From Thermoanaerobaculia bacterium (GTDB lineage Bacteria; Acidobacteriota; Thermoanaerobaculia; Multivoradales; J023): DNA of 30,942 nt. The position numbers and the translations under genes are program-made. The stretch's first letter is position 1, and each line of letters begins with the position of its first letter. Of this stretch, positions 22,925-30,942 are shown piece after piece. The notes beneath the pieces are model-generated. The model saw only the letters and a list, made by a program, of their open reading frames with translations. It ran no database searches and was not told the origin of the DNA. The stretch lies in NCBI GenBank assembly GCA_036397835.1, contig DASWIG010000167.1:1-30942 (forward strand), in the 5' to 3' direction.

Positions 22925-23403
22925 TCAGCTCCGACGCACCAGGATCCTGCCGGCCAACTCCAGCGCCGCCGCGCCCGCCGCTTCCAGGAAGCTGGCGATC
23001 GACGCCGGGCAGCGCGCCAGGCCGTCGGCGAGGTTCAGCGCCTCCGTCAGCTCCGGATTGCCGTGGCGCAGCCGGCCCACGGCGCGGCCGTCCCGATAGA
23101 GCACGGGACCGCCGGCGTCCTCCGGGTCGACGGAGAAGCTCCGCGTCCGGTCTACCAACGGCAGGAATGCGGCGGCGAGCAGGGCCGTGTCGCGGTCGGT
23201 GAGGGTGCCGAAGGGCTCGTCGCCGTCCTCCGGATTCTCCCACATGCGAACAGGCCGTAGCGCTCGTCGCCGAGCGGCACCACGCGCCAGAAGCCGCCGG
23301 TCACCGCCTCGCCGGCGGTCACGGGGTCGTCGTGCTGGTCGAGACTTCGGAGGTAGCTCGGATGGAAGGCGTTGACGAGGGTAGAATCGTCTTGATCGGG
23401 CAT
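22925..23403 (-). pseudogene. Acidic hypothetical protein gene disrupted by a frameshift near 23246
   Basis: Two abutting minus-strand ORFs, 23403..23152 (MPDQDDSTLVNAFHPSYL...GDERYGLFA) and 23245..22925 (MWENPEDGDEPFGTLTDRD...ELAGRILVRRS), are colinear in adjacent frames and overlap at ggcctgttcgcatgtgggag. Joined, they would give an acidic protein of about 160 aa. It is divergent from hsdM. A 3' remnant of a paralogue lies at 5845..5962. Confidence 0.55.
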
Positions 23404-23555
23404 TGGGTGTACTCCTTTGCCTGGTCAGGTCCGGGCGAGCGCCAACTCGCTCGGGCCGTCTTGGTTTTGTGAAGCGGATGCTCCGTTACCGCTAAGAGTA
23501 GCCGGATTCCGGGGACAAGTCAACCCTCGAGAGCGTCAAAGGCTGGGATTCTTCG

Positions 23556-25499
23556 ATGGCCACGGCCCGCCTCAAGCCCGCCCAACAGCGGACCGCCCTG
23601 CGCGTCCTCGGACGCGACCGCCTCCGCGAGCTCACCGACCACTTCGAGCTCGACGTCGGCGACAAACGCGTGATCGACAACCACGTCGACGCCCTCGTCC
23701 GCAGCCGCGGCGTCGACTTCGCCGACGTGCTCGCCCAGCTCTTCCGCGACGAGCTCAAGGCGATCTGCGAGGCCCTCGGCCTCGACAGCGGCGGACGCGC
23801 CAAGGAGCCCATCATCCAGCGCATCCTCGACGCCGACACGGCGTCCGCTCCCAGGGAAAGAGAGAGCGCAGCCGAGACGCCTGCACCACAACGCCCCAGG
23901 AAGACCTCCGAGACGGCTGCACCGGCTGAGCGCCAGCTCGACGTCTCCGCCCTCGGCGATTGGCTCTGGAAGGCCGCCTGCGAGATCCGCGGCCCCGTCG
24001 ACGCTCCGAAGTTCAAGGACTACATCCTGCCGCTGATCTTCCTGAAACGCCTGTCCGACGTCTTCGACGACGAGGTCGGCCACCTCGCCGCGGACTTCGG
24101 CGACCGCGACACCGCCGCCAAGCTCGTGGAACAGGATCACAAGCTGGTGCGCTTCTACGTCCCCGAGGGCGCCCGCTGGTCACGCATCGCCAAGATCACC
24201 ACGAGTCTCGGCGAGGCCCTCACCGACGCCGTGCGCGCCGTGGCCCGCCAGAATCCCCGGCTCTCGGGCGTCATCGACGTGACCGACTTCAACGCCACCA
24301 CCGCCGGCCAGCGCATCGTCGACGACGCTCGTCTGGTCGCCCTCGTCAAGGTCCTCAACGACAAGGACAAGGGCTATCGCCTCGGTCTCGACGACGTGGA
24401 GCCCGACATCCTCGGCCGTGCCTACGAGTACCTGCTGCGCAAGTTCGCCGAAGGCCAGGGACAGAGCGCCGGCGAGTTCTACACGCCGCGCGAGGTCGGC
24501 GTGCTCATGGCGCGCATCCTCGACCCGCAGCCCGGCATGACCGTCTACGACCCGTGCTGCGGTTCGGGCGGGTTGCTCGTGAAGTGTCACCTGCGCCTCC
24601 TCGATACGAAAGGCGAGAGGACGAACGGACGACTGCGGCTGCCGTCCACGGTGGCCCCGCTCAAGCTCTTCGGTCAGGAGATCAACGCCTCGACCTTCGC
24701 CATGAGCCGCATGAACGCCTTCATCCACGACATGGAGGCCGAGATCGCCCCCGGCGACTCCATGGCCCGTCCGTCGTTCACCGCGGGCGACGGCAGCCTG
24801 CGCGAGTTCGACCTGGTGACCGCCAATCCCATGTGGAACCAGAAGTTCAGCGCCAAGACCTACGAGAACGACGGCTACGGCCGCTTCGGCCGCGGCACGC
24901 CGCCGGCGTCGAGCGCCGATTGGGGCTGGATCCAGCACATGGTCGCCTCGCTTGGGCCGAACGGACGCATGGCCATCGTGCTCGACACCGGAGCCGTCAG
25001 CCGCGGCAGCGGCAACCAGGGGTCGAACAAGGAGCGCGACGTTCGTAAGAAGTTCGTGGACGGCGACCTGGTGGAAGCGGTGCTGCTGCTGCCGGAGAAC
25101 CTCTTCTTCAATACGACCGCGCCGGGGATTGTGATGATCGTCAACCGCAGCAAGCGGCATCCCAAAGAGATCCTGCTCATCAACGCTTCGAAGATGTTCT
25201 CGAAGGGACGGCCGAAGAACTTCCTGGAGGCCGAGCACGTCGAGCGGATCGCTGGGGTCTATCACGGATGGAAGGCGGAGGACGGATTGTCGGCTGTCGT
25301 CGGCGAGGCGGAGGCGGTGAAGAACGACTACAACCTGTCGCCGAGTCGTTATGTGTCTACGGGGGCGGAGGCGGAAGCGCTGCCGCTTGATGAGGCGGTG
25401 GTGCTCTTGGCAGAAGCAGAGGAAGAACGGACCGAGGCGGATCGGCGCTTAGATCAAGTGTTGGTACAGTTGGGATTCGAGGGATGGCGGAATGGCTGA
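23556..25499 (+). CDS. hsdM: Type I restriction-modification N6-adenine DNA methyltransferase subunit with an extra N-terminal domain of about 130 aa
   Basis: The HsdM_N-like segment LWKAACEIRGPVDAPKFKDYILPLIFLKRLSDVF is present. The SAM-binding motif I is VYDPCCGSGGLL and the catalytic motif IV is NPMWNQKF. The 3' end overlaps hsdS by 8 nt. The N-terminal 130 aa precede the usual HsdM start and contain the SAP/HeH-like LAQLFRDELKAICEALGLDSGGRAKEPIIQRIL. Confidence 0.85.
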   Translation: MATARLKPAQQRTALRVLGRDRLRELTDHFELDVGDKRVIDNHVDALVRSRGVDFADVLAQLFRDELKAICEALGLDSGGRAKEPIIQRILDADTASAPRERESAAETPAPQRPRKTSETAAPAERQLDVSALGDWLWKAACEIRGPVDAPKFKDYILPLIFLKRLSDVFDDEVGHLAADFGDRDTAAKLVEQDHKLVRFYVPEGARWSRIAKITTSLGEALTDAVRAVARQNPRLSGVIDVTDFNATTAGQRIVDDARLVALVKVLNDKDKGYRLGLDDVEPDILGRAYEYLLRKFAEGQGQSAGEFYTPREVGVLMARILDPQPGMTVYDPCCGSGGLLVKCHLRLLDTKGERTNGRLRLPSTVAPLKLFGQEINASTFAMSRMNAFIHDMEAEIAPGDSMARPSFTAGDGSLREFDLVTANPMWNQKFSAKTYENDGYGRFGRGTPPASSADWGWIQHMVASLGPNGRMAIVLDTGAVSRGSGNQGSNKERDVRKKFVDGDLVEAVLLLPENLFFNTTAPGIVMIVNRSKRHPKEILLINASKMFSKGRPKNFLEAEHVERIAGVYHGWKAEDGLSAVVGEAEAVKNDYNLSPSRYVSTGAEAEALPLDEAVVLLAEAEEERTEADRRLDQVLVQLGFEGWRNG

Positions 25500-29659: not shown

Positions 29660-29994
29660 TGAGTCGAGCGACGGCGACGGCCGTGGCCGAGTGGGCGCCG
29701 CTCGAGGACGCGGTGAGCAAGGACGTGCTGCGAGCCGAGATCCGGGTCTGGGCGGATCGGATCGGCGTGGAGGCTAAAGAGGTCCACATCCGTCCGATGC
29801 GTCGCAAGTGGGGCAGTTGCTCCACGGCTGGGCGGGTGACGTTCAGCTTGGACCTCCTCGTCGAGCCGGCGGAATTCCGCAAGCGGGTGATCGTCCACGA
29901 GCTGCTGCACCTGAAGGTGCCGAACCACGGCAAGCTGTTCCGGGCGTTGTTGCGAGCGTACACGGATTCAGGCGAGTCTCCGTCCTCTCCCTGA
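29659..29994 (+). CDS. DUF45 / YgjP-like (M48-related) zinc metallopeptidase, short form
   Basis: The WGSCS motif is followed by the HExxH-containing segment VIVHELLHLKVPNHGKLF, as in the YgjP/DUF45 family. It is translationally coupled to hsdR (TAATG). DUF45 genes are commonly found next to type I hsd operons. Confidence 0.65.
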   Translation: MSRATATAVAEWAPLEDAVSKDVLRAEIRVWADRIGVEAKEVHIRPMRRKWGSCSTAGRVTFSLDLLVEPAEFRKRVIVHELLHLKVPNHGKLFRALLRAYTDSGESPSSP

Positions 29995-30189
29995 TTCCCA
30001 GCCTGAAATCGGCTCCGGTACAAGTCACTGAGAACAGGGACCTTATCGCCACCGGGCGAAAAAATCTCAAACCCCGCGTCAGAATTCACGGCTCTCATAC
30101 GTCTTACAGGTCTTCAGTAGACGCAAGCACGGATTGCGCGCGTCTCTCAAGTGCCGCTCTCGTTCCCGAGGGGCGGCGACGGAGGACCT

Positions 30190-30942
30190 ATGCGTGGCCT
30201 TCACGACCATATCGTCAAGGAGCTCGGCATCGCCTTCCCGGCCGACCTGCTGGCGCTCGCCCTGCCGCACCTGGCGGCGGCCGCCGACGTGTCGAGGCTC
30301 GAGCTCGTGCCCGGCCGCGAGCGCTTCAACGACCTCCTGCGGGGCCGCCGCTGGTTCCCGGACTTGGTGGCGGAGATCCGCGTGCCCTCCGACCCGGAGC
30401 CGCGGGCATTGGCGCACGTGGAGATCGAGCACGAGTACCGCAAGCGCAAGCTCGTGCGCCTGCGCGATTACAACCACGTGCTCACCCTGGGCACGGGTTT
30501 GCCCGTGCACACGGCGGTGGTCTACCTGCACGGCGGCGAGGCGGGACTGACCCGGTCGAGCTTCGAGCAGGTCTCGTTCGGCGTCCCGGTCACCTTCGCC
30601 TACAACAGCCTGGGGCTCTCGGGAGCATCGGCGCGGGAGTATCTCGCCCGCCCGGAGCCGTTGGCCTGGGCGTTCGCGGTGCTCATGAGCTCCCAGGGCT
30701 TCGGCAGCCGTGCGGAGGCGGCGCTCGCCTGTCTGCGTCGAATCCTGGAGGCCCCCGGGCTCGACGAAGACCGCCGCTTTCGGCTCTTGAACTTCGTGGG
30801 TACATACGTCAAACTGGATGCGCAGACGGCTCCGGAGTACGAGGCCTTGCTCCGCGAGGCGGGATATCGAGAGGTAGAAGCGATGATCACGACGTGGGCA
30901 GACGATCTTCGAGCGGAAGGACGCCAGAAGGGCAAGGAGGAA
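30190..30942 (+). CDS. Rpn (YhgA-like) family PD-(D/E)XK recombination-promoting nuclease / transposase_31-like, 3'-truncated by the window edge
   Basis: The frame is open from ATG 30190 to the window end, with GGAGGA 4 nt upstream. HVEIEHEYRKRKLVRLRDY matches the RpnA-type HVVIEHQSKPDKKMAFRMMRY. The N-terminal HDHIVKEL matches HDAVFKQF. The C-terminal MITTWADDLRAEGRQKGKEE is the typical W...eG.q.G DUF4351-like tail. This ORF is missing from the supplied track, probably because it has no stop codon in the window. Confidence 0.65.
   Translation, partial: MRGLHDHIVKELGIAFPADLLALALPHLAAAADVSRLELVPGRERFNDLLRGRRWFPDLVAEIRVPSDPEPRALAHVEIEHEYRKRKLVRLRDYNHVLTLGTGLPVHTAVVYLHGGEAGLTRSSFEQVSFGVPVTFAYNSLGLSGASAREYLARPEPLAWAFAVLMSSQGFGSRAEAALACLRRILEAPGLDEDRRFRLLNFVGTYVKLDAQTAPEYEALLREAGYREVEAMITTWADDLRAEGRQKGKEE

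Follow-up and report, generated by a model that had tools for sequence, protein, structure and literature searches.

How did a complete type I restriction-modification (R-M) operon come to stand at the end of a contig from a poorly studied bacterial phylum, and where does the DNA that belongs with it begin and end? The window analysed here is the whole 30,942-nt contig of a metagenome-assembled genome (MAG) from the Thermoanaerobaculia (Acidobacteriota). Its 3′ part carries hsdM, hsdS and hsdR, a gene for a YgjP/DUF45-type peptidase and an Rpn-like nuclease gene, inside which the contig stops. We consider it likely that these genes form a modular defence island of ~8.85 kb, in which the hsdMSR-DUF45 operon is bracketed by two multi-copy modules and which was inserted in the 3′ end of a CRTAC1/ASPIC-family gene (Table 1). 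The bracketing modules are a gene for an acidic protein on the left and the Rpn-like gene on the right, both of which occur in multiple copies in the same genome. The gene order given in a first-pass annotation of this DNA, an acidic open reading frame (ORF) on the minus strand, hsdM, hsdS with an 8-nt overlap, hsdR, the DUF45 gene joined through TAATG, a spacer and the last gene, was found in full.

Borders of the inserted block

The window locus recurs at 99.6–99.9% identity in at least ten other metagenome contigs; the population is represented in the samples JGI 3300037518 and 3300030606 and ENA ERZ27256807. We used three other metagenome assemblies of the locus (L001, L002 and L003), and two independent assemblies that reach the glutamate dehydrogenase (GDH) gene on the far side of the insert (L011 and L021). 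Two further contigs, L019 and L023, also carry the second copy of the repeat described below. Comparisons were made with the orthologous ASPIC loci of different species (L030 and L031) and with a paralogous Rpn-like locus (L012–L016).

The ASPIC gene of the window does not end as its orthologues do. Its last ~14 conserved residues are swapped for a 23-aa tail encoded by the insert; the orthologues P0172 (85% identical), P0174 and P0178 share the ending R[IL]V.PPA.R.LV, and the window protein ends in LQGLRPSPGGSGDRGAGLAMRFR. A second copy of the 97 bp that precede the left junction is located between the stop codon of the Rpn-like gene and the GDH gene in L011, L021, L019 and L023, and reads on into the authentic ASPIC C terminus (RIVHPPAGRDLVLKG / RTRIVHPPAGRDLVLKG), matching the same three orthologues. 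In a blastn search of the window against the fetched loci, copy 1 is 94.8% identical to copy 2 (L011 1237–1333, L021 1353–1449, L019 and L023 601–697). The 97 bp are present once in L030, and both copies of the window lineage match the copy found there. Homology between the window and L030 ends exactly at 22338, and homology between L011 and L030 restarts at the first base of copy 2. Read from these alignments, the block interrupts the CRTAC1/ASPIC-family gene near its 3′ end and has left the authentic gene end stranded downstream; that it was inserted is not in doubt, since both halves of the target gene are accounted for.

In L030 and in L031, which carries a 71% identical orthologue, the upstream TPR-ASPIC order is kept, other genes follow and there is no hsd block. 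The first-pass annotation had proposed a horizontally acquired island, a proposal set against conservation of the hsd block in syntenic position in all related genomes. The uninterrupted ASPIC loci of these two related lineages, together with the 97-bp duplication and the stranded gene end, bear it out. The uninterrupted loci belong to different species, and the population itself yielded no empty site. A flanking direct repeat and an uninterrupted locus in relatives, the marks of an integrative island, are thus both present.

In the other samples the block extends 33 nt beyond the stop codon of the Rpn-like gene, for a total of ~8.85 kb. L011 and L021 both run from the 3′ end of the DUF45 gene through the spacer, the whole Rpn-like gene and the repeat into the GDH gene, and are identical to the window over 30066–30690. 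A tRNA, an integrase or a direct repeat had been named as examples of a downstream boundary; the last of these was found. ORFs, domains and a tRNA scan gave no integrase, transposase or recombinase of the block's own and no tRNA attachment site between 22339 and the contig end, and no tRNA was found by scanning the whole window. The sole recombinase candidate inside the block is the Rpn-like gene. Of the contigs found when metagenomes were searched with the GDH gene, L021 spans the Rpn-like gene and the others begin within it; the same search of the genome collection gave only one locus, 81% identical and with no shared synteny. An exact-protein look-up for P0003 and for the window ASPIC protein returned no record.

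The two repeat copies differ at five sites. Four of these, when polarised by L030, fit one reciprocal crossover, with copy 1 native in its left part and foreign in its right part, and copy 2 the other way round; the fifth is not polarisable. Five sites are thin evidence, but they suggest that integration probably took one crossover, within a short stretch of homology to the target gene. Such an entry would account for the 97-bp imperfect direct repeat.

The first-pass annotation had placed a palindromic tandem array just outside the island, on its 5′ side, with the island starting at 22925. This has to be revised: the left border is at 22339, and the array therefore belongs to the inserted block. 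The insert opens at 22339–22353 with ATTGCAGGGCCTGCG, which is similar to GCATTGCAGnnnCTGCAACGC, the palindromic core of the array unit, and the left junction may lie at a solitary array-like hairpin.

Composition separates the block from its surroundings unevenly. The GC content of the insert is 64.1%, as against 71.5% upstream. For 20 backbone genes, 13 from the upstream part of the window and seven from the downstream part of L011, the GC content at third codon positions (GC3) is 0.948 ± 0.022, and all island genes fall below the backbone: hsdR 0.92, the acidic gene 0.89, hsdM 0.88, the Rpn-like gene 0.87, the DUF45 gene 0.85 and hsdS 0.62. hsdS is the sole island gene far outside the host GC3 range, and within it the first and second target recognition domains (TRD1 and TRD2) reach 0.55 and 0.67. 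The compositional distinctness noted before is accordingly strong for hsdS, whose TRDs do look foreign, but the other genes are only slightly lower, and hsdR has a host-like GC3 with a GC content at second codon positions of 0.37. The lower total GC of hsdR is due to amino acid content, not to codon choice. Megablast of the island found no counterpart among plasmids or phages.

Table 1. Features of the window discussed in the text, with positions counted from the first nucleotide of the contig.
Feature	Position	Strand	Basis or remark
CRTAC1/ASPIC-family gene (insertion target)	20783..22411	+	FG-GAP and UnbV_ASPIC Pfam families, read on L001
Direct repeat copy 1, 97 bp, with left junction 22338/22339	22242..22338	+	blastn, three-way alignment
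Inserted block (island)	22339..30942, on past contig end		blastn, alignment and GC
43-nt palindromic tandem array, ~6.5 copies, inside insert	22427..22731		TRF
Acidic 159-aa gene (A), pseudogene in window	22925..23403	-	1-nt deletion near 23249
Intergenic region A-hsdM	23404..23555		up to ~23523 conserved with A paralogues (blastn)
hsdM, 647 aa	23556..25499	+	N6_Mtase (PF02384) E=2.7e-87 and HsdM_N; PADLOC MTase_I E=1e-226
hsdS, 417 aa, two TRDs	25492..26745	+	two Methylase_S stretches; many PADLOC Specificity_I matches
hsdR, 962 aa	26771..29659	+	TIGR00348 447 bits (cut-off 285), E=9e-134
YgjP/DUF45-type zinc metallopeptidase gene, 111 aa	29659..29994	+	PF01863 83.5 bits (cut-off 26)
Upstream region of Rpn-like module	30053..30189	+	95.6% identical, with the gene, to paralogous locus L012–L016
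Rpn-like PD-(D/E)XK nuclease gene, C-terminal DUF4351	30190..30942, runs off contig	+	251 of 322 codons in window

The hsd operon and its peptidase

The hsd operon begins at most 32 nt past the end of the acidic module and ends 58 nt before the Rpn-like module, which starts at 30053. Its promoter must lie within 23404–23555. This region includes a hairpin (23428–23457; 12-bp stem) with a T-rich run behind it, in the stretch that is conserved among acidic-gene paralogues. Promoter and terminator scans performed no better than on shuffled sequence. All four operon genes, hsdM, hsdS, hsdR and the DUF45 gene, are intact in the window and in L002.

HsdM has motif I as DPCCGSGG, and its closest solved structure is 7VRU. 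It carries an N-terminal extension of ~135 aa (23556–23960), absent from solved HsdM structures, which gives a weak SAP-like match just under the cut-off (22 bits) and is followed by a low-complexity linker. hsdM and hsdS overlap by 8 nt, ATGGCTGA. TRD1 of HsdS is encoded at ~25492–25941 and TRD2 at ~26107–26586. The likely start of hsdR is the ATG at 26771, located behind GAGAG and 25 nt past the hsdS stop codon, with a TTG at 26738 as alternative; its stop codon is at 29657–29659. HsdR has the domains HSDR_N, SWI2_SNF2, ResIII and T1R_D3, the motif D...ETK, the Walker A sequence GSGKT and a DEAH box, and the closest solved HsdR is that of EcoR124I (type IC; E=3e-29). By family membership, HsdM2-HsdS would methylate a bipartite target set by the two TRDs of HsdS, and the HsdR-bound complex would translocate along unmodified DNA and cut it.

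In L003 the first 150 residues of HsdS, corresponding to TRD1, are unrelated to those of the window protein, and residues 149–417 differ at few positions. The 3′ 1.4 kb of hsdM in L003 is only 93% identical to the window. In sequence terms the TRD1 difference is a classic specificity swap by recombination, a natural example of such an exchange between co-existing strains. With hsdS codon usage foreign and TRD1 differing between samples, whole-TRD exchange would appear to diversify the specificity of this system.

The start codon of the peptidase gene lies inside the stop codon of hsdR (TAATG at 29657–29661). The protein has the motif HELLHLKVPNH with the HExxH zinc site, and is identical on 11 metagenome contigs. 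It matches PF01863 only over positions 112–195 of 207, the catalytic C-terminal half, and so falls short of the full domain of ~200 residues. Comparison with projannalysin (4JIX; 112 aa) gave E=0.003, and since the protein aligns with the 110–112-aa projannalysin/MJ1213 peptidases a stand-alone domain this small is plausible. A tblastn search against plasmids returned 84 records. A homologue was found directly after hsdR in four of the seven contexts inspected, in Salinibacter, Acaryochloris, Methylocystis and the archaeon Haloquadratum; thus the pairing is an architecture known to recur, and it is the small size of the peptidase that is peculiar to this locus. We also considered that the N-terminal half of DUF45 had been fused to HsdR. 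This was ruled out, as there is no YgjP-like Pfam match in HsdR, and size is also against it (962 aa in the window, compared with 1006 and 1043 aa for HsdRs encoded before full-length DUF45 genes). Literature that connects DUF45 or COG1451 with type I R-M was sought, with no relevant result. The peptidase is translationally coupled to hsdR and would most likely act on the R-M complex, for example by removing HsdR during restriction alleviation, in a role analogous to that of ClpXP.

The two flanking modules

The Rpn-like gene at the right end gave no match at E<=1 to PF04754, nor to any other family in Pfam, NCBIfam or PADLOC, when the window fragment was searched, and the full-length and near-identical P0001 does not match PF04754 either. 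Of its 46 homologues, 40 match DUF4351 and 11 match PF04754, with a best E value of 5.7e-6. The DUF4351 score is 22.7 bits for P0001 (cut-off 25) and 26.7 bits for the paralogue P0002. D6, D58 and E78 are invariant in the homologues, within the motifs HD..FK, PDL and hVEIE, and a PD-(D/E)XK fold with conserved acidic catalytic residues is predicted. The earlier assignment to the Rpn/YhgA nucleases therefore holds for the fold and the Rpn-related homologues, but the protein is not a clear PF04754 member; on homologues and predicted fold, it is placed as a distant, DUF4351-bearing relative of Rpn. The low-GC spacer at 29995–30189, which had been listed with the horizontally acquired specificity modules, does have a GC content of 0.58, but it is mostly the upstream region of the Rpn-like gene itself, conserved at the paralogous locus.

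Rpn genes have been reported to specify two products, a toxic nuclease and a small C-terminal antitoxin translated from an internal start, the latter annotated as DUF4351 in some species; the number of repeats in the antitoxin tunes its specificity, and the genes cluster with defence genes (PMC10400941). The window gene has a candidate internal start (GAGG, 8 nt and ATG at 30883; 30871–30885) just before a repeat and DUF4351 region. The last nucleotides of the contig (30900–30942) belong to a 24-nt coding tandem repeat (units such as EGRQKGKE) located between the nuclease and DUF4351 domains, and the repeat number varies among copies of the gene (L011 ~960–1060; L012 10729–10825). A gene-within-gene mechanism like that of RpnL/RpnS is therefore plausible by analogy, and the gene is probably a self-inhibited toxin/antitoxin defence gene like its E. 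coli counterparts. At the L012 locus, a decayed acidic-gene fragment with an in-frame stop is found 59 nt from the Rpn-like unit, so the two modules were neighbours before. A DarT and Macro-domain pair (L012 1366–3079), a DarTG-type toxin-antitoxin, is located ~7 kb from the Rpn-like paralogue, which suggests that this neighbourhood is also defence-rich.

The acidic gene at the left end is frameshifted in the window, as had been recognised, by a 1-nt deletion (AAA to AA at ~23249) that is shared with L001; L002 and L003 are intact. The repaired protein has 159 aa and a pI of 4.6, and a 106-aa fragment is recorded as P0138 (locus tag VGG06_07490). Frameshifted products are recorded from four contigs and intact ones from three, and the deletion therefore looks like a real polymorphism. 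At least eight matches of the family occur under locus tags of the same MAG, with full-length paralogues 85–91% identical. The gene together with ~100 nt upstream (22925 to ~23523) shows 85–87% DNA identity to other loci by blastn. A profile search placed the family in 633 representative clusters, and searches of Pfam, NCBIfam, PADLOC and PDB sequences gave no match. The AlphaFold2 model of the family is poor (pLDDT 59).

Most copies of the acidic gene stand alone among housekeeping genes; one adjoins an SLFN/AlbA_2 ATPase gene, and another is located near a SieB-domain gene. In L032 an acidic paralogue is flanked by a 48-nt direct repeat (5627–5674 and 7029–7076; 88% identical), in which a piece of the 3′ end of the adjacent pyridoxal phosphate (PLP) decarboxylase gene is present a second time. 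The arrangement is reminiscent of the 97-bp repeat of the window, except that the authentic end of the decarboxylase gene follows the first copy.

The palindromic array is located 193 nt 3′ of the acidic gene and folds with z = -8.2. A search of Rfam gave no family, only sub-threshold noise of the miRNA type. The paralogous locus L027 has its own array of 43 nt x 6.9 copies (8544–8836), of unrelated sequence, 64 nt after the acidic-gene stop codon, and the allele in L028 has 5.9 copies (8544–8794). Within ~250 kb of DNA from this lineage, the window and L027/L028 are the only places with a non-coding array of period >=20 nt, and at four other acidic-gene loci there is no array. The idea that gene and array are a RAYT/REP pair was ruled out, as the protein has no conserved HUH/Tyr motif and no Y1 transposase match in Pfam.

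Alternative explanations and known systems

Several observations weigh against reading the block as an island of ~8.85 kb that was acquired as a unit and still functions, and they are discussed here together with the alternatives they bear upon. The GC3 values of hsdM and hsdR are nearly host-like, so that the operon has not come very recently from a low-GC donor. Those values (0.88–0.92) would also fit a block that is ancestral at this site and was lost in related lineages, as would the fact that the genes 3′ of ASPIC differ among L030, L031 and the window genome, which points to a general synteny break. We regard such an ancestral block as barely credible, however: a deletion in the relatives cannot create a 97-bp duplication here, by which this explanation is already contradicted, and it cannot strand a gene end past the block while the gene itself reads into foreign sequence. 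Size is less secure than acquisition. The right junction is absent from the window contig and was taken from assemblies of other samples, and the exact size is inferred. Moreover, L011, L021 and L019 differ from the window at 11 positions over 30691–30906 and at the last base, 30942; at six of these 12 positions in the last 250 nt, the window shows the state of the paralogue at the L012 locus. This 3′ mosaic in the Rpn-like gene reflects either gene conversion between paralogues or assembly mosaicism or chimerism, and because of it the stretch from the contig end to the junction could contain more DNA. The island could then be larger than 8.9 kb or have another right end, with two near-identical Rpn-like copies that bracket more genes and that short-read assemblers collapsed into one; the Rpn-like copy linked to GDH would in that case be another than the one at the contig end. 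The contig ending in a tandem repeat inside the Rpn-like gene is in line with this, as is the finding that most metagenome contigs break within or just before that gene, which is explained by the 95.6% identical paralogue (137 nt upstream included) in the same samples. Nevertheless, two independent assemblies each span the distance from the DUF45 gene to the GDH gene in agreement with the window over 30066–30690, and the stranded 3′ end of ASPIC requires a matching truncated copy, of which only the one in the window was seen. We therefore hold a larger island to be unlikely.

The block has no integrase, transposase or tRNA, and its mode of entry is inferred from five nucleotide differences. 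A more specific proposal is an undescribed, integrase-less mobile element whose ends are formed by the acidic gene plus array and by the Rpn-like gene; it would insert into the 3′ ends of genes, make long target duplications and here carry hsd as cargo. Both modules are multi-copy at 85–95% identity and form the exact ends of the insert, they occur together again at the L012 locus, the left end opens with an array-like palindrome (ATTGCAGGGCCTGC), the acidic paralogue of L032 is flanked by a repeat of a neighbouring gene's 3′ end, and PF04754 was first annotated as a transposase family. On the other hand, there is no flanking repeat at the acidic loci of L024, L027, L034/35 and L039 or at the L012 locus, most copies of the acidic gene are without an Rpn-like neighbour, and the geometry of L032 differs, with the authentic gene end after copy 1. 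We find such an element improbable. Equally speculative is the broader notion of a family of mobile cassettes that insert into gene 3′ ends through short homologous segments, leave duplications of 50–100 bp and carry defence operons or, more narrowly, that the acidic protein and the hairpin array are a new functional pair. Somewhat less doubtful than any of these, but still unlikely, is that the R-M system is a decaying relic in this population. Motif IV of HsdM (24867–24878) is NPMW and not the usual NPP[FYW], the second proline being replaced; hsdM is frameshifted in L001 (3902–5841, with four 1-nt gaps) and in L003 (544–2437) lacks 47 nt of the HsdM_N region; and the acidic gene of the window is itself frameshifted. 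Some strains may be losing the R-M system, or the assemblies L001 and L003 may be imperfect. Against decay stand the four operon genes, intact and with their catalytic motifs in the window and in L002, the DUF45 protein that is identical on 11 contigs, and NPMW itself, which is shared by the 93% identical allele of L003: its retention across alleles differing at 7% of residues argues for selection. Furthermore, the exchange of TRD1 suggests ongoing selection on specificity. An acquired, modular defence island thus remains the preferred explanation.

A type I R-M system with a DUF45 partner and an Rpn-type neighbour is familiar defence-island content, and the main finding is in this respect ordinary; new are the exact borders and the repeated flanking modules. 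The island is cleanly delimited, with target, duplication and stranded gene end all visible. The two lineage-specific multi-copy modules at its ends may inform how such islands are built. The 111-aa protein is a minimal form of an HsdR-associated peptidase that occurs in several bacterial phyla and an archaeon, and may suit experiments. The less ordinary aspects, an insertion signature that lacks a recombinase, the minimal peptidase and flanking modules in multiple copies, should be taken as leads and not as results.

Compared with known systems, the Rpn-like gene resembles E. coli Rpn and RpnL-RpnS (PMC5350276, PMC10400941) in HD..FK, the conserved D and E.E, the PD-(D/E)XK fold and the variable C-terminal DUF4351. 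It is also like them in its varying short coding repeats, its candidate internal Shine-Dalgarno sequence and ATG, its multiple copies and its defence neighbourhood. The repeats of the window gene are 8-aa units, whereas those of the E. coli Rpn paper are 4-aa units, and the window protein reaches no PF04754 score. The peptidase is, like the minigluzincins (projannalysin MJ1213; PDB 4JIX and 4QHF), a stand-alone zinc peptidase of ~110 residues; HELxHxK..NHG aligns, and sequence similarity is weak. The archaeal minigluzincins have no known R-M link. Homologues occur on the Salinibacter ruber plasmid pSR56, an Acaryochloris marina S15 plasmid, the Methylocystis parvus plasmid pMpar-1 and Haloquadratum walsbyi PL100, where the peptidase gene abuts or overlaps hsdR on the same strand and encodes HExxH...NH. 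The plasmid homologues have ~240 aa, compared with 111 aa here, and are annotated as SprT family zinc-dependent metalloproteases. Among plasmid-borne HsdRs none exceeds 33% identity to that of the window, and HsdM departs from the known systems by its N-terminal extension of ~135 aa and by NPMW. In all other respects compared, the operon agrees with known type I R-M systems of the order hsdM-hsdS-hsdR: all subunits, domains and motifs are there, neighbouring genes overlap or lie almost end to end, HsdS carries two TRDs, and TRDs are exchanged between strains.

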